IMG/VR virus record: IMGVR_UViG_2529293141_000017
Location: 1-25,976 of that record
Strand: one strand, 5' to 3'
DNA: 25,976 nt
DNA from: a virus
Lineage: Duplodnaviria > Heunggongvirae > Uroviricota > Caudoviricetes
How positions within the stretch are numbered: the stretch's first letter is position 1; every line of letters starts with the position of its first letter. The notes beneath the pieces were generated by a model, which saw only the letters and a program-made list of their open reading frames with translations, had not been told where the DNA came from and did not search any database. A program made the translations under genes and the position numbers. Positions 2,811-13,547 of the stretch are shown here, one piece after another.

Positions 2811-3035
2811 ATGGAACAGTATGTTTTTTCACCGTCAGAGAATATGTTCTATCCCCTGTCCCTGCGGCCGGTTTATGAGGCAGCAGGGCGCTGGCCGGAA
2901 GACGGTATTGTGGTGGATTATGTGGTGTATAAAGTCTTTGCAGCGGATGCTGCACCGGCAGGTATGAAGCGGGGCGTCGGTGCGGAAAAAATGCCGGTCT
3001 GGGTGCCGGTATCGGAGGAGGGCACGGAAACATGA
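2811..3035 (+). CDS. Tail fibre assembly protein-like, N-terminal-type fragment (74 aa)
   Basis: The N-terminus MEQYVFSPSENMFYP...AGRWPEDG resembles the N-terminal motif of tail fibre assembly chaperones. It is too short for a full Tfa and its stop overlaps the next start (ATGA). Confidence 0.4.
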   Translation: MEQYVFSPSENMFYPLSLRPVYEAAGRWPEDGIVVDYVVYKVFAADAAPAGMKRGVGAEKMPVWVPVSEEGTET

Positions 3036-3304
3036 TGCATATCAGAAATTTTTCGTATTACACCCCGGCGGAGCCGGATGTTGCAGGCGCGATGTACCTG
3101 AAGTCTGAGGATGGTCAGGACTGGTATGAGTGTCAGGCGTTGTTTTCGCCGGAGACGCTGAAGGTGGTGTATGACAGCCGGGGTGTGATTACGGGATACG
3201 GTAAGGACACTGCGTTACTGTGGCCGGTGAACCAGAGTGTGGCAGAAGTGCCGGATACCCCGGAGAACAGGAAAATTGACCTGAGCGGGCGCTGGGGGTT
3301 TTGA
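3032..3304 (+). CDS. tfa: Tail fibre assembly protein (Mu U / P2 G-like), N-terminal part; frame broken at a T4 run
   Basis: SEDGQDWYE...ETLKVVYD...VAEVPD...DLSGRWGF parallels P2 G / Mu U up to the W-x-F motif and then stops. The continuation DGEKI... lies in the -1 frame (see findings). Confidence 0.55.
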   Translation: MMHIRNFSYYTPAEPDVAGAMYLKSEDGQDWYECQALFSPETLKVVYDSRGVITGYGKDTALLWPVNQSVAEVPDTPENRKIDLSGRWGF

Positions 3305-3350
3305 CGGGGAGAAAATCACGGACCTGCTGACCGCGGAGAAAGCGCGAGGG

Positions 3351-3707
3351 ATGAAGGGCGATGAAATTAACGCCTGGCGTAATGCGATGGAAGCGGCGAA
3401 CTACACGTTTGAGCACAATGGGCGTAAATGGGACTACGGGAAGTCAACGCAGACGCGTCTTGAGCCATCGGTGGCGGCGGCGAAAGCGGGGAAACTGCCG
3501 GAGGCGTTTTTCTGGACGGATGCGGAAAACAATGATGTGCCGGTGACAGCAGAAGAGCTTATTGCGCTGAGTGAAGCGGCAGAGCAGGCGATGTTCACTA
3601 AAGGGATGGAAATCCACATTCGCCAGCGCACCATGAAGAAGGACCTGGAATCGCTGAGCAGTGCGGATGAGATCCTGGCATACAGGGTTGGCTGGGCACA
3701 GGAATAA
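3351..3707 (+). CDS. tfa: Downstream part of the same tail fibre assembly gene (or a separate 118-aa chaperone-domain ORF)
   Basis: The frame is open from 3285 and reads ...FDGEKITDLL..., completing the W-G-F-D-G motif of the upstream ORF. ATG 3351 has only a poor Shine-Dalgarno. Confidence 0.45.
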   Translation: MKGDEINAWRNAMEAANYTFEHNGRKWDYGKSTQTRLEPSVAAAKAGKLPEAFFWTDAENNDVPVTAEELIALSEAAEQAMFTKGMEIHIRQRTMKKDLESLSSADEILAYRVGWAQE

Positions 3708-3870
3708 CAGACAAAAAGATGGGGGACCATCACCTCCCCCATGAACTGCGTTGATTATGTCATTATTGTGAAGATATACACTATGCCGGGTAAATAGTGC
3801 CACGGAAAAGTTAATTCCGGAAGTGACGGAACTCTCATTTTTCGCGCATCCTGTTGATATGGATGATTTT

Positions 3871-10472: not shown

Positions 10473-10846
10473 TTTTTTTCGTGTTTTTTCAGTATGCGCA
10501 TACTGGATAAGTGCACAGATACAACGTGAAACAATGTGCAATAACGTGACACAATCACGAACAAGAGGCCAAAAAGAATACAGATTTATAAGTTACTGAT
10601 TTTTAATGCTCAGCTGGTTTTTTATACATTAGTGAATTACGCGTTAAAGCGTGCGAAAAAAGGCATAAAACAAGATTTTATGCCTTTGTATTAACATGAA
10701 TTTAAATGATTTTATCCTGATTATTCCTCTTTCTGTAAACCATGCGACACCAACATTTGCCAACTCTGAATCATCCTGACACAATCAGACACATCCCAAC
10801 GCAATAGAACACGAAATAACTCTTTAAGAAACGAAAGGGGGCAATA

Positions 10847-11035
10847 GTGTTAAGCACTGATCGGTTTATACGTGAAAAAGAATGCGAAAAGCTAACAGGC
10901 CTTAGCCGCTCATGCCGCTACCGCCTGGAAAAGGCCGGACAATTCCCATCACGTCGTAAACTTGGCGGGCGTTCTGTTGGCTGGTCTTTATCTGAGGTTT
11001 TGGCCTGGAAGGATAGCTGCAAGGCAGTTCACTAA
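10847..11035 (+). CDS. alpA: AlpA-family (MerR/Xis-like) transcriptional regulator
   Basis: 62 aa with LTGLSRS..YRL...FP..RKLGGRSVGW, matching the AlpA pattern. GTG start with an AAGGGGG Shine-Dalgarno. Confidence 0.75.
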   Translation: MLSTDRFIREKECEKLTGLSRSCRYRLEKAGQFPSRRKLGGRSVGWSLSEVLAWKDSCKAVH

Positions 11036-11215
11036 AAAGACTGGCGGCACACAGCCACCACCAATCCATTATTGACCGATACCGGGATCTCGGTATCGGG
11101 AATAAACGCCATAATACTGAGGTATAACCATGATGAAATATACGCCCGTACAGGGGCGGGGATTCGTTCGCCCTGGTGAATCTGAAAAGCCATGCTATAG
11201 GGTATTTTCAGGCAT

Positions 11216-11243
11216 AAAAAAAGCGGTCCCGATATGGAACCGC
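11216..11243 (-). terminator. Rho-independent terminator for the minus-strand repressor cassette
   Basis: On the minus strand: GGCGGTTCC atatc GGGACCGC followed by T7. Confidence 0.45.
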
Positions 11244-11311
11244 CTTTCTGAACAATTAACCCGCTGCGCCGTATGTGTCAACAATCATAAGCCCGAACAT
11301 GATAACCGTGA

Positions 11312-11515
11312 TCAGGCTGGTGGGCAATTACCTTGCTTGTTGGGGCCGTATTGTGCTGCCATTTTCATCCGTTCAGAACGTGAATATTTTTTTAGAAACT
11401 CATCAAGGACAAAAGCGCATGGAGCGAATCTTTCTGATTCATGCTCGAGCGCCATATTTTCGTGCTCTCTGTTCGTTTTTTGCGATGGTGTATTGGTTGA
11501 TTCTTTATTGGTCAT
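11312..11515 (-). CDS. Hypothetical small protein (67 aa), second gene of repressor cassette A
   Basis: Paralogue of 12028-12255: shared MTN start and a conserved C-terminal F-x-L-D/E-x-F-x-K-Y-x-R motif. It is followed by a terminator. Confidence 0.45.
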   Translation of the reverse strand: MTNKESTNTPSQKTNREHENMALEHESERFAPCAFVLDEFLKKYSRSERMKMAAQYGPNKQGNCPPA

Positions 11516-11572
11516 TGTGTGTACCTGTAAAGCAATGCGCCGTAGTACCTCACGCCACGGCGCTGATAGTAA

Positions 11573-11752
11573 TTATTCTGATTCTTTGGCCTTGCGGCGC
11601 TGGCGGCGTTTGATCTCGCCTTTTGCTGCCGTAACTAGAAATCCGGCGGTACTTTCGCCAGGTTCTTTAAGTTGCTCAATATCGGTCATTACCTCATGCG
11701 GGATTCTGACCGTTGTCATTTGTGATTTTGCGTTCTTTGCACCTGTTGCCAT
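11573..11752 (-). CDS. Ribbon-helix-helix DNA-binding protein (59 aa), candidate island repressor, copy A
   Basis: Own translation MATGAKNAKSQMTTVRIPHEVMTDIEQLKEPGESTAGFLVTAAKGEIKRRQRRKAKESE, with a beta-strand / helix / helix pattern. AGGAGA Shine-Dalgarno 7 nt upstream. Divergent from a plus-strand promoter and operators. Confidence 0.55.
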   Translation of the reverse strand: MATGAKNAKSQMTTVRIPHEVMTDIEQLKEPGESTAGFLVTAAKGEIKRRQRRKAKESE

Positions 11753-11771
11753 TTCTGGTTCTCCTGATAAT

Positions 11772-11864
11772 CGGTGTATTTCAGTATACGCAAAAAAAAG
11801 ATAAAAAAAGTCTTGCGGTGTATTTCACCTGAATGTAGATTTAAAAATGAAGGTGAAATACACC
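11772..11864. promoter_or_regulatory. Operator/promoter region A: GGTGTATTTCACC in three copies, two forming a perfect 13-bp inverted pair
   Basis: 11817-11829 and 11852-11864 are exact reverse complements; a third direct copy lies at 11772-11783. The region sits between divergent genes. Confidence 0.45.
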
Positions 11865-11938
11865 CAAAACAACAACGCCCCGCAGTGATGGGAACACATA
11901 CGGGGCGTCTAACCAAACCATTAATTGAGGTAACGATT

Positions 11939-12010
11939 ATGGCTATAAAAGAGCATAGCTTACTCTTTATACACACACAAACGCCCCGGAAACGGAATAA
12001 TCCGTTTCAT
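11939..12010 (+). pseudogene. Truncated 5' remnant of an Icd-like gene (paralogue of 12685-12879)
   Basis: MAIKEHSLLFIHTQT... shares the M-x-x-x-H-x-x-x-L-x-HTQT start with 12685, then loses similarity where cassette B begins. Confidence 0.35.
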
Positions 12011-12027
12011 AGTTCGGTTTTGTGCAC

Positions 12028-12255
12028 TCATCCTGGCGGTCGGTTTTTGCCGGATTTAAGCCGCCGTGGGTATTTATCGACAAAATCTTCAAGGGCAAAT
12101 TTTTCTGGTGGCACTAAGCGCGGCGCTGGTGGTGGTATTTTTGTTCTGGTTAGTTCTTCCTCAACTCTGGCGCAGGCTTCTGACTGCCTTTGCCGGATGA
12201 TTTCATCATCTTGCGTTTGCGTGTCTTGTATTGGTGATAGTGTGTTGTTGGTCAT
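12028..12255 (-). CDS. Hypothetical small protein (75 aa), second gene of repressor cassette B
   Basis: Paralogue of 11312-11515, same position in the cassette. Confidence 0.5.
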   Translation of the reverse strand: MTNNTLSPIQDTQTQDDEIIRQRQSEACARVEEELTRTKIPPPAPRLVPPEKFALEDFVDKYPRRLKSGKNRPPG

Positions 12256-12312
12256 GATACTGCCCTGTAAAGCAATGCGCCGTAGTACCTCACACCACGG
12301 CGCTGATAGTGA

Positions 12313-12492
12313 TTATTCTGATTCTTTGGCCTTGCGACGCTGGCGGTATTCAACTTCCCGCTTTAATGCAGCTGTAACAAACTGCCCTGTACTTTCGCCG
12401 GGCATTTTTACCGCCTCAACATTGTTCATAACTTCATGTGGAACCCTTGCCGCAACTGTTTGTGATTTTGCGTTTACTGCTTTTGTCGCCAT
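12313..12492 (-). CDS. Ribbon-helix-helix DNA-binding protein (59 aa), candidate island repressor, copy B
   Basis: MATKAVNAKSQTVAARVPHEVMNNVEAVKMPGESTGQFVTAALKREV.... GAGGGG Shine-Dalgarno upstream. Divergent from the replication operon. Confidence 0.6.
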   Translation of the reverse strand: MATKAVNAKSQTVAARVPHEVMNNVEAVKMPGESTGQFVTAALKREVEYRQRRKAKESE

Positions 12493-12542
12493 GTTGAGCA
12501 CCCCTCATAAAAAACAAATGCAGTATGCAGGAAAAAAAACAA

Positions 12543-12594
12543 GTGTTCAACACTTGACGTGTTTAACACCTCGATTTAAATTGGTGTTCAACAC
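12543..12594. promoter_or_regulatory. Operator/promoter region B: three GTGTT(C/T)AACAC palindromes overlapping a TTGACG-N17-TAAATT promoter
   Basis: Palindromes at 12543, 12559 and 12584 bracket the -35 and -10 of the plus-strand promoter feeding 12685 onward. Confidence 0.5.
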
Positions 12595-12684
12595 CTTATT
12601 TAGGCAAGGTGTAGAAACGACGAAACCCCGCACTGTAGGAGCAGTAACGGGGCTTCTAACCAACAACGTAAACGAGGAGCCGTT

Positions 12685-12879
12685 ATGGTTGCCGTAAATC
12701 ATATACCACACCTTGTACACACACAAACGGCCTTTGTGTGGCGTTTTCTGGCACTGAGTGCCGGAGAATCTCAAATCATCCACGTAACCGCCTGGACGGA
12801 ACGCGAAGCGCGTAACCTTTGCCCGTCCGGTTGTGTTGCTGTATTTGCCGCCCGTATTCGCCAGGGGGTAGGCTTATGA
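12685..12879 (+). CDS. Small protein, possibly Icd-like (host cell division inhibitor family); first gene of the early operon
   Basis: 64 aa with a GAGGAG Shine-Dalgarno. The motif FVWRFLALS...TEREAR...FAARI resembles Icd-like proteins of P4-type elements, from memory only. Confidence 0.5.
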   Translation: MVAVNHIPHLVHTQTAFVWRFLALSAGESQIIHVTAWTEREARNLCPSGCVAVFAARIRQGVGL

Positions 12880-13109
12880 GCCAGGAAATCACACTACAAC
12901 AGGCAGCAGAACGCGCCCACCAAATCGAAGTTATTTGCGCACTGGCAGAGGATTACCCTGGCATGATGACCGACAGCGAATCAGGGGCAATCATCGGCTT
13001 ACTTAAACGCCTTAGCGGTGAGGTCTGCGTATTCCTGAGCGATGAACAGGAAAGAAGAACGCTTATTTCTAACGAAAAAAAATGCGGAGGGGTACACCAT
13101 GTGCAATAA
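12876..13109 (+). CDS. Hypothetical protein (77 aa)
   Basis: ATG overlaps the upstream stop (ATGA); GGGGGT Shine-Dalgarno; translationally coupled. Confidence 0.5.
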   Translation: MSQEITLQQAAERAHQIEVICALAEDYPGMMTDSESGAIIGLLKRLSGEVCVFLSDEQERRTLISNEKKCGGVHHVQ

Positions 13110-13341
13110 CATCCGTCCGGACGCAGCCGCCGCCGCACTCACTACGCTGATGCACGCGCTTATTGATATTGAATGCACGGCAGAGCTTGCACAAAAGGAA
13201 GAACGGGAGGAATACACATTGTTCGCCCTGGAATGTATCCGATACACCGCCACGCGGTCGCTGAATGACGCTAAAAATATTCTTGTTGCAGATTGTGAAA
13301 ATGGGGGGGGGTTATGCGTGATGATCGTTTTAATTCCCTGA
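13099..13341 (+). CDS. Hypothetical protein (80 aa) with a G9 tract near its 3' end
   Basis: GGAGGGG Shine-Dalgarno before ATG 13099; overlaps the neighbouring genes. Confidence 0.45.
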   Translation: MCNNIRPDAAAAALTTLMHALIDIECTAELAQKEEREEYTLFALECIRYTATRSLNDAKNILVADCENGGGLCVMIVLIP

Positions 13342-13547
13342 AACAAGAATTTTCCGGCGTTCCTGATGATGCGGCTGATGCGCTTTCGTCAATGCCAGAA
13401 CTTATTAGAGCGGCTTTTTTCTTACTTTCCACGAGAGAATATAAATCAACGGGGCTTGATGTACTGAATATCGCCGCCGATTATGCGGAATATGTGGCAG
13501 AGGCGCGTTACAGAAGAAAATTTCCTGAGGATGTAAGCCATGCGTGA
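13314..13547 (+). CDS. Hypothetical protein (77 aa)
   Basis: ATG directly after the G9 tract, which serves as its Shine-Dalgarno; operon context. Confidence 0.5.
   Translation: MRDDRFNSLKQEFSGVPDDAADALSSMPELIRAAFFLLSTREYKSTGLDVLNIAADYAEYVAEARYRRKFPEDVSHA

Follow-up and report, generated by a model that had tools for sequence, protein, structure and literature searches.

Two stacked, non-identical ribbon-helix-helix modules in the putative immunity-like control region of an Escherichia coli capsid-forming satellite

The island and its control region

The virus record IMGVR_UViG_2529293141_000017 provided the window, a stretch of 25,976 nt analysed at full length, in which two small minus-strand gene cassettes lie in tandem between alpA and an icd-like gene. 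The alpA gene (10847..11035, plus strand; Pfam Phage_AlpA, E = 5e-18; a helix-turn-helix regulator in the annotation of a related island) codes for the known activator and excision regulator of the satellite and forms the left border of the regulatory region. The intact icd-like gene (12685..12879, plus strand; NCBIfam NF033153, phage_ICD_like, 65.5 bits) starts with MVAVNHIPHLVHTQT and heads the rightward early/replication operon, which runs on to the RepA helicase. The region 10800-12870 is 99.3 % identical to this related island, locus L001 of E. coli strain 10, which is inserted at tqsA according to the annotation of that strain. The order of genes in L001 is integrase, AlpA-type regulator, two 'YlcI/YnfO family' genes each with a hypothetical neighbour, Icd-like gene, DUF4222, RepA-family helicase, SSB and PerC, followed by capsid, prohead protease, portal, head-closure, connector, HNH and the small and large terminase; the open reading frames of the window are colinear with it. 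An integrase, alpA, a replication gene, own capsid, protease, portal, connector and terminase genes and no tail genes in the L001 annotation are the gene set of a capsid-forming phage-inducible chromosomal island (cf-PICI) as defined in 10.1101/2022.09.08.507074. The interval from alpA to the icd-like/replication operon is the control region of an E. coli-type cf-PICI satellite. For Gram-negative PICIs, AlpA has been named as activator, the existence of a repressor is unclear, and the gene after alpA is variable and of unknown function (PMC6092414; 10.1101/2025.02.11.637232). The comparison comprised 35 loci from one genome per species, together with E. coli-type loci from viral contigs and complete genomes.

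Two cassettes with ribbon-helix-helix proteins

Each cassette consists of two minus-strand genes, a 59-aa protein of the ribbon-helix-helix (RHH) type and a downstream small protein beginning with MTN; all coordinates and open reading frames of the sequence-only reading of this DNA hold. Cassette A comprises RHH-A (11573..11752) and the 67-aa MTN-A of the MTNKEST class (11312..11515; phrog_21027, function unknown), cassette B comprises RHH-B (12313..12492), for which the MAT start is backed by the family alignment, and the 75-aa MTN-B of the MTNNTL class (12028..12255). The starts of the cassettes are spaced by 740, and over about 740 bp the two align colinearly, with a mean column identity of 76 %; the two RHH proteins are 61 % identical.

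RHH-A and RHH-B were assigned to NCBIfam NF041551 (YlcI/YnfO_N) with 62.1 and 59.7 bits at a cut-off of 30, and both match phrog_949 of unknown function. Pfam offered no family at gathering score, and DUF3950, the annotation of YlcI in E. coli K-12, was not among the weak matches up to E = 1. An AlphaFold2 (AF2) model based on 43 homologues (pLDDT 85) has an extended N-terminus and two helices. An N-terminal beta-strand followed by two helices within about 45 residues is the fold of the RHH (Arc/MetJ/CopG) superfamily, so that the model bears out the proposed RHH-type fold. The family has an invariant frame, M-A-T-x3-N-x-K-S-[5 variable]-R-V-P-H...G-E-S-T, and the five variable residues fall where the RHH beta-strand is expected, between N-x-K-S and R-V-P-H. 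Among 122 family members 49 distinct pentapeptides were present at this position; RHH-A carries the allele QMTTV and RHH-B the allele QTVAA. The family is small, with 84 cluster representatives among 1.84 billion proteins, its named members all belong to the Enterobacterales, and a tblastn search with RHH-B against 50,697 phage records returned nothing. The K-12 proteins YlcI (DLP12) and YnfO (Qin) are members of the same NCBIfam family NF041551. YlcI resembles 65-aa alleles of the AKKNI type (...NFSAWV...), is only 22 % identical to RHH-B, and its gene adjoins nohD/cos in a lambdoid late region, a different context. A published function of YlcI or YnfO was not found in the literature, nor was a paper linking RHH or YlcI/YnfO proteins to the control of PICIs.

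Candidate operators on divergent promoters

A divergent promoter pair in each cassette bears a cassette-specific candidate site in three copies, 11-13 bp in length and with the frame xTG-N5-CAx. The significance of these sites was assessed by counting against expectation or shuffles over the 26-kb window; the promoter scan required 9/12 consensus positions. The A site GGTGTATTTCACC is present in two exact copies, one of them inverted, and in a third copy with 2 mismatches, while about 0.5 matches were expected in the window. The B site GTGTTCAACAC is present in two exact copies and one 1-mismatch copy, giving 6 strand-matches against 0.62 expected; in 100 shuffles the count always stayed below 6. 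Apart from these copies, both motifs are absent from the 26-kb window.

In module A, the first site O1(A) (GGTGTATTTCAGT; 11773..11785, plus strand) is the 2-mismatch copy. It lies at offset 21 from the RHH start, as in all YlcI-type alleles, and abuts the -10 element TATACT of the leftward promoter (11783-11788, minus strand). The rightward promoter P_R(A) (11813..11841, plus strand), with TTGCGG, a 17-nt spacer and TAGATT, was read from the sequence as a weak consensus match of 7/12 and was not reported by the scan with its minimum of 9/12. O2(A), an exact GGTGTATTTCACC (11817..11829, plus strand), overlaps its -35 element and spacer. O3(A), the inverted GGTGTATTTCACC (11852..11864, minus strand), is situated downstream of the -10 element and was detected as part of an inverted repeat of 14 nt with 100 % complementarity.

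In module B, O1(B) (GTGTTCAACAC; 12543..12553, plus strand) contains the minus-strand -35 element TTGAAC of the leftward promoter, for which a -10 element CATACT was read from the sequence (12522-12527, minus strand). P_R(B) (12554..12582, plus strand; TTGACG, 17-nt spacer, TAAATT), the promoter of the icd-like/replication operon, reached 9/12 in the scan. O2(B) (GTGTTTAACAC; 12559..12569, plus strand) is the 1-mismatch copy and begins at the final base of the -35 element, and O3(B) (GTGTTCAACAC; 12584..12594, plus strand) begins 2 nt past the -10 element. O2(B) and O3(B) flank the -10 element of P_R(B), a layout that is constant in all YlcI-type alleles. The arrangement agrees with the earlier suggestion of a separate operator set for each cassette, placed on divergent promoters. 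As to the form of these putative operators, repeats for cassette A and palindromes for cassette B had been proposed; the cassettes do differ in their repeats, but palindromic symmetry is only approximate in the B sites and absent from the A sites, and both fit xTG-N5-CAx.

Covariation of beta-strand alleles and sites

About 16 alleles from many Enterobacterales were readable, and offset statistics were obtained on 13 allele classes. Every YlcI-type locus has a common scaffold of roughly 125 bp from the RHH start to a leader hairpin. It starts with a site at offset about 21, followed by CAGTATAC, which is TATACT (-10) on the RHH strand; then come an A-rich tract, the rightward -35 element within CTTGA(C/A)(G), a second site directly after it at offset about 66, the -10 element and a third site at offset 88-101, inverted in some loci. 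The flanks xTG..CAx are nearly invariant and the N5 core is allele-specific: TTCAA with QT[VLI]AA, TATTT with QMTTV, TGTTT with QLTTV, G[GA]CCA with QSLKS, GCTGA with [KR]KLEA, TC[CG]GA with KRFDV, CGATT with QQLNA, CAAGT with QQKTA, GAATC with QKLQA and QKIQA, GGTGC with QKMSA and TGATT with KQISI. The cores of O1 and O2 agreed in 4.46 of 5 positions within a locus and in 1.83 of 5 between classes; the observed sum was not reached in any of 100,000 permutations. Similar beta-strands go with similar cores, as in QMTTV (TATTT) and QLTTV (TGTTT), or in KRFDV and KRIDA (both TC[CG]GA), KKIDV (TCTGA) and KKLEA (GCTGA). Three alleles fetched afterwards, KKIDV, QALRA and KRIDA, each had three own sites at offsets 21, 67 and 92-101, in agreement with the layout predicted from the earlier alleles, and the core of KRIDA equals that of KRFDV.

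The specificity block recombines on both sides: one RHH allele is found with different MTN classes, leaders and icd genes. Thus the N-terminal part of the RHH protein is the sole protein sequence always linked to the sites, which is the main argument that the RHH protein reads them. For an argument from sequence alone we consider this RHH/operator reading strong. The suggestion that the differing beta-strands of RHH-A and RHH-B reflect different DNA specificities is supported by the strong covariation of alleles and cores. This covariation also lends indirect support to a dimer whose paired beta-strands would read the major groove at repeated sites, as is typical of the RHH superfamily.

In Edwardsiella hoshinae (locus L002, 4001-4171), an RHH protein identical to RHH-B over 57 residues occurs with the same GTGTTCAACAC operators; the DNA downstream is different and lacks the E. 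coli-type joint described below. Spread of cf-PICIs between genera has been reported, and the occurrence of this RHH protein and its operators in Edwardsiella agrees with it.

A conserved joint between exchangeable blocks

The cassettes share an 82-bp patch with 79 of 82 identical positions. Copy A (11525..11606, minus strand) covers the last 11 codons of RHH-A, a hairpin at 11537-11563 and the leader of MTN-A; copy B is located at 12265..12346 (minus strand) with its hairpin at 12277-12303. RNAfold calculated free energies of -16.9 kcal/mol for hairpin A and -22.5 kcal/mol for hairpin B on the minus strand and weaker structures on the plus strand. Hairpin B was also a match in the scan for terminator-like structures, with 12 pairs followed by ATTGCTTTAC; in general, its free energies on the RHH strand range from -17 to -22.5 kcal/mol, and AUUGCUUUAC comes after the hairpin. 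Viral contigs scanned with the 27-nt hairpin yielded 24 loci, in which at least 10 RHH alleles, including three Arc-like proteins without sequence kinship to the YlcI type, were joined in free combination to 4-5 classes of downstream small open reading frames (two MTNNTL subtypes, MTNKEST, MTNEEST and MQDNTMTDKEL). The mean pairwise identity of 40 distinct segments was 0.96 over the hairpin and the next 13 nt, and outside this peak it fell to about 0.45 (RHH body) and 0.5-0.6 (MTN gene). The patch is, as had been presumed, a local island of identity and not part of a wider uniform conservation. As at least 10 alleles and 4-5 classes of small open reading frames have it in common, it is no sign of a recent duplication; it is a conserved module joint with a terminator-like hairpin. 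The exchangeable unit consists of the RHH residues up to about 45 and the operator region, between the conserved joint and the conserved rightward leader. Where E. coli-type loci have the hairpin, those of Xenorhabdus, Limnobaculum, Dryocola and other genera have a canonical intrinsic terminator after the RHH gene, and they lack an MTN gene.

A diverged joint hairpin, GCGCCGTGGAGTGATGAACTGTGGCGC, precedes an MTD... small open reading frame in L073 and L074 (881-960), an island with the KRIDA allele and an Ash-family gene; the exact-hairpin counts are thus lower bounds.

The downstream MTN genes

The order of an RHH gene followed by a small open reading frame is like that of operons with RHH antitoxins, and each cassette might be a type II toxin-antitoxin pair with the MTN protein as toxin. 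A toxin family or fold and a co-adapted gene pair, as such a system would have, were not found. The MTN proteins had no toxin or defence family at a meaningful score in Pfam, NCBIfam or PADLOC; matches of MTN-A to Cas8 were noise (17.6 bits against a cut-off of 125). For MTN-B, with 17 homologues, all in E. coli, and no Pfam domain, the AF2 model (pTM 0.33) is a single long helix (8-39) with a short helix. The RHH and MTN genes are separated by a 57-nt spacer containing the terminator-like hairpin, the RHH protein has no C-terminal toxin-binding extension, MTN classes are freely combined with unrelated RHH alleles, and in other genera the terminator stands after the RHH gene and the MTN gene is missing. 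Free assortment and absence in other genera, together with the helix model and the lack of a family match, speak against a toxin or an obligatory partner of the RHH protein, and a toxin-antitoxin pair is barely credible. On the same grounds, the proposal of the MTN protein as a toxin or an anti-repressor target is not supported.

MTN-A and MTN-B share 31 % identity over 42 residues only, with a common motif F-A/V-L-E/D-x-F; across the MTN classes the C-terminal motif is (K/R)FA(L/I)EDF(V/L)xK(Y/C)PRR. The ratio of nonsynonymous to synonymous polymorphism (pN/pS) was 0.43 for MTN-A (6 variants) and 0.48 for MTN-B within a range of 0.2-0.55 for MTN genes, indicating genes that are probably translated and weakly constrained. 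The MTN genes are best treated as a separate, fast-evolving cargo restricted to E. coli, which would be expressed via read-through of the joint hairpin.

Origin of the stack

To the right of module A, the first 15 codons of an icd-like gene (MAIKEHSLLFIHTQT...; 11939..11983, plus strand) match the intact gene at 12685 and diverge after ...CACACACAAACG. This icd stub is the truncated remnant that had been noticed as the rightward partner gene of cassette A. The junction of stub and MTN-B (11880-12080) was covered to at least 80 % in at least 110 of 5,426 complete E. coli genomes, and the stub was present in 13 loci of viral contigs. Islands with one cassette (L062, O157:H7) and with two stacked cassettes both occur; the O157:H7 island, of the EcCIEDL933 type, has the layout of the window, but a single Arc-like cassette with ATGGTAATTACC repeats. 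As alpA-proximal and icd-proximal alleles, we found the pairs QMTTV and QTVAA, QMTTV and Arc-like, QMTTV and AKKNI, Arc-like and QQKTA, KQISI and QKLQA, Arc-like-2 and QKLQA, and Arc-like and a long YlcI-type allele. Stacks were always heterotypic, with no allele twice in one stack. In all variants read but one, the alpA-proximal unit ends in the same stub MAIKEHSLLFIHTQT; the exception, L041, is broken in an arm of the leader hairpin and has lost leader and stub.

The cassettes had been described as tandem duplicated and diverged. A duplication in place with later divergence, in which gene conversion kept the 82-bp patch, would account for the colinearity over about 740 bp. However, both alleles exist independently elsewhere, QMTTV as the only cassette of L062 beside a full icd-like gene and QTVAA in Edwardsiella (L002), the patch is common at about 96 % to at least 10 alleles including non-homologous Arc-like RHH proteins, the MTN partners are only 31 % identical, and the same stub junction occurs with many different allele pairs. 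The modules appear to be different alleles of a pool, with a joint common to E. coli-type alleles, and an origin by duplication in place is very improbable. Since the stub junction is shared by many allele pairs, the stack would have arisen by recombination between islands, with alleles exchanged since then at both positions, which fits these data better than duplication and divergence.

The present role of module A was considered along three lines. A recombination relic that has no role and decays would explain the rightward gene reduced to a 15-codon stub, the loss of even leader and stub in L041, and a weaker -35 element than the same allele has when it stands alone: for QMTTV it is TTGCGG in the alpA-proximal position and TTGAAG as sole cassette in L062. 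For KQISI it is TTTACC or TTTGCC in the alpA-proximal and TTGACC in the icd-proximal position; the comparison includes only these two YlcI-type alleles, as promoters of Arc-like alleles are not confidently assignable. Against decay, the RHH open reading frame is intact in every alpA-proximal copy read, covering at least 5 different alleles, and O2 and O3 of module A are perfect 13-mers; for QMTTV and KQISI, the sites of the alpA-proximal copies have been preserved as well. The stacked lineage, in at least 110 genomes and with allele replacement at both positions, implies a long persistence without module loss. We regard the relic as unlikely, though deserving attention.

Alternatively, transcription from P_R(A) might pass the stub, run antisense across module B and enter the operon, so that the tandem promoters act as an OR gate in which loss of either repressor induces the island and a wider set of helper signals becomes effective. 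P_R(A) and P_R(B) have the same direction, and the joint hairpin between them was terminator-like in the scan only on the minus strand (12303-12277), being weaker on the plus strand; the plus strand has weaker terminator-like sites of its own between P_R(A) and the operon, at 12437-12454 and 12583-12595. The -35 element of P_R(A) is degraded in the alpA-proximal copies of two alleles, the opposite of what is expected of a used promoter, and the L041-type stack has no leader. An OR gate is improbable. The third line is a second immunity specificity, which we prefer and place below into the proposed working of the region.

Proposed working of the region

With moderate confidence we read the region as an immunity-like control region with two non-identical modules, in which module B would gate the operon, module A would supply a second specificity, and the stack would stem from recombination between islands. 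The stacked double immunity of the sequence-only reading remains the best interpretation of what the two modules may be for. A module would consist of the leftward gene for the 59-aa RHH protein, about 125 bp with back-to-back promoters and three sites, and the conserved structured leader, while the joint and the rightward leader would flank the exchangeable specificity block. RHH dimers are expected to place their beta-ribbon into the site cores. As O2 abuts the rightward -35 element and O3 lies just past the -10 element, binding there would shut the rightward promoter, and binding to O1 at the leftward promoter would result in autoregulation. Module B, proximal to icd, would gate the early/replication operon of the island. 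Module A has apparently kept the RHH gene and perfect O2 and O3 sites, lost its target gene and suffered a weakening of the -35 element; it would no longer drive the operon and would be an autoregulated unit expressing RHH-A and MTN-A. Most likely it persists to provide a second immunity specificity, directed in trans at other class-A islands, a view derived from two alleles.

In the integrated state the RHH protein would hold P_R shut. The alpA gene lies upstream of the icd-rep operon in the same orientation, with the RHH modules antisense between them. AlpA is required for induction and activates its own promoter and downstream genes, and the helper triggers its expression (PMC6092414). Induction probably proceeds without cleavage of the RHH protein: transcription dependent on AlpA may activate P_R or cross the region, which would also interfere with RHH expression.

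Several points weigh against this interpretation. Over-expression of AlpA alone induces the related EcCIEDL933 (10.1101/2025.02.11.637232), so that the RHH protein may not be the master switch. O1 of the allele QQKTA is mismatched with its O2 and O3. RHH gene and sites are physically linked, and an allele-site association alone could reflect co-inheritance; the argument then rests on the concerted identity of three separate sites within a conserved scaffold. The weakened -35 element of alpA-proximal copies was observed for two alleles only, and the functions of RHH proteins and sites were deduced from sequence throughout. Genomes with module A mostly lack a second class-A island, a fact that speaks neither for nor against the proposed action in trans.

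A far-reaching version of this interpretation would see the RHH/operator blocks as master repressors and immunity determinants of Gram-negative PICIs in general, with dozens of heteroimmune classes and a readable code from beta-strand to DNA represented by the 49 pentapeptides. Stacking would then provide a second immunity that silences a rival class of satellites or answers a second signal, while the own replication control is kept. We hold this extension to be tentative and rather doubtful.

Relation to known control systems

The immI region of phage P22 encodes the RHH repressors Mnt and Arc, with the divergent promoters P_mnt and P_ant. It resembles the modules in the small RHH repressors, the operators inside back-to-back promoters and the autoregulation combined with repression of a rightward operon that is proposed here, and some of the alleles sharing the joint are Arc-like in sequence. 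YlcI-type alleles have no sequence similarity to Arc or Mnt. In contrast to P22, each module has one RHH protein and three sites, the element is a satellite and not a phage, and the rightward operon contains icd-like and replication genes instead of an antirepressor. Lambdoid phages exchange heteroimmune alleles of their immunity regions between conserved flanks and have three operators on divergent promoters. The many alleles of repressor and operator, the three candidate operators and the blocks bounded by conserved sequence for recombination are similar here. However, the 59-aa RHH protein lacks a cleavable or sensing domain, two blocks are stackable, and a Cro-like counterpart was not identified. 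CopG of pMV158 and the omega repressor are RHH copy-control repressors acting on the promoter of a replication operon via repeated short sites; CopG differs in being co-transcribed with rep, in a single pseudo-symmetric operator and in the absence of a hypervariable specificity series.

In Gram-positive PICIs the repressor gene is divergent from the replication operon and lies between the integration genes and the replication module (PMC6092414). The RHH modules share this island position and orientation with Stl/Str of Staphylococcus aureus pathogenicity islands, but Stl proteins are large helix-turn-helix repressors that bind helper-phage proteins directly, while the RHH proteins are minimal and the known induction factor is the activator AlpA. 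With the RNA-based immunity of P1 (immI; c4 RNA - icd - ant) and P4 (CI RNA), the region has in common an icd-like gene that heads the controlled operon after a structured leader, and for Gram-negative PICIs immunity RNAs of the C4/isrK type were reported in this zone (PMC10111431). Here, a C4/isrK match to Rfam is lacking and the control elements are repeats of a protein-binding type. For C4, isrK and other Rfam families of this kind, no match was obtained at gathering scores in the window, nor up to E = 5 in 10700-13400, and antisense-RNA immunity of the P1 C4, P4 CI or isrK type was ruled out by the absent match.

The region presents a testable candidate repressor for Gram-negative PICIs, a minimal RHH protein with candidate sites on the promoter of the replication operon, at the place where Gram-positive PICIs keep Stl. 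About 16 readable alleles and 49 beta-strand variants on a fixed scaffold are an unusually clean series for the contact of beta-ribbon and DNA, and orthogonal repressor/operator pairs could be drawn from this specificity series. Should the stacked heterotypic modules be functional, this would mean that satellites compete via immunity, as phages do.

Leaders, terminators and antisense frames

The conserved 5' leader of the rightward transcript contains hairpin A (11875..11908, plus strand) and hairpin B (12624..12655, plus strand), each followed by TCTAACCA. In this first leader hairpin, 10 of 12 pairs had compensatory double changes across 18 sequences. The whole leader of the icd-like operon (11875-11938 and 12624-12684, and at the same position in L002-L074) is composed of a two-part hairpin, the single-stranded TCTAACCA and a small hairpin with the Shine-Dalgarno sequence in the loop; no Rfam family matched it. 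It could serve RNA stability or processing, or be the target of an antisense RNA. A terminator-like hairpin on the plus strand (12720-12740; CACACAAACGGCCTTTGTGTG followed by GCGTTTTCTG) is situated inside codons 12-19 of the icd-like gene and might be an early attenuator relevant to the action of AlpA, or chance. In module A, the break of the icd stub falls within the loop of the corresponding hairpin.

Leftward transcription of module A would end at an intrinsic terminator (11216..11243, minus strand; GCGGUUCC-AUAUC-GGGACCGC followed by U7), which RNAfold rated at -21.2 kcal/mol on the minus strand versus -12.5 kcal/mol on the plus strand. In the O157 island, a compensatory change from U-A to C-G was read by eye in the stem of this terminator.

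Stop-free frames antisense to both cassettes extend over 11130-11804 (plus strand, 224 codons) and 11774-12697 (plus strand, 307 codons), and in the O157 locus L061 over 2812-3756 (plus strand, 314 codons). They were rejected as real genes: family support is absent, shuffles of synonymous codons gave P = 0.18, 0.54 and 0.07, pN/pS was 0.86, and one locus had a frameshifted variant. These frames are a side effect of the amino-acid composition that the minus-strand genes encode, and the 'Icd-like pseudogene' annotated by PGAP in O157 (L061, 2812-3405) is the same artefact.

Two further structures were observed outside the modules. A sok antitoxin RNA (Rfam RF01794) at 970-1128 on the plus strand scored 62.9 bits against a gathering score of 59, indicating a hok/sok-type locus that belongs to the flanking chromosome and not to the island. 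A perfect 12+12 palindrome (CCGATACCGGGA/TCTCGGTATCGG) without a T-tract is located at 11076-11099, 40 nt past the alpA stop codon, and has with its flanks a free energy of about -26 kcal/mol.

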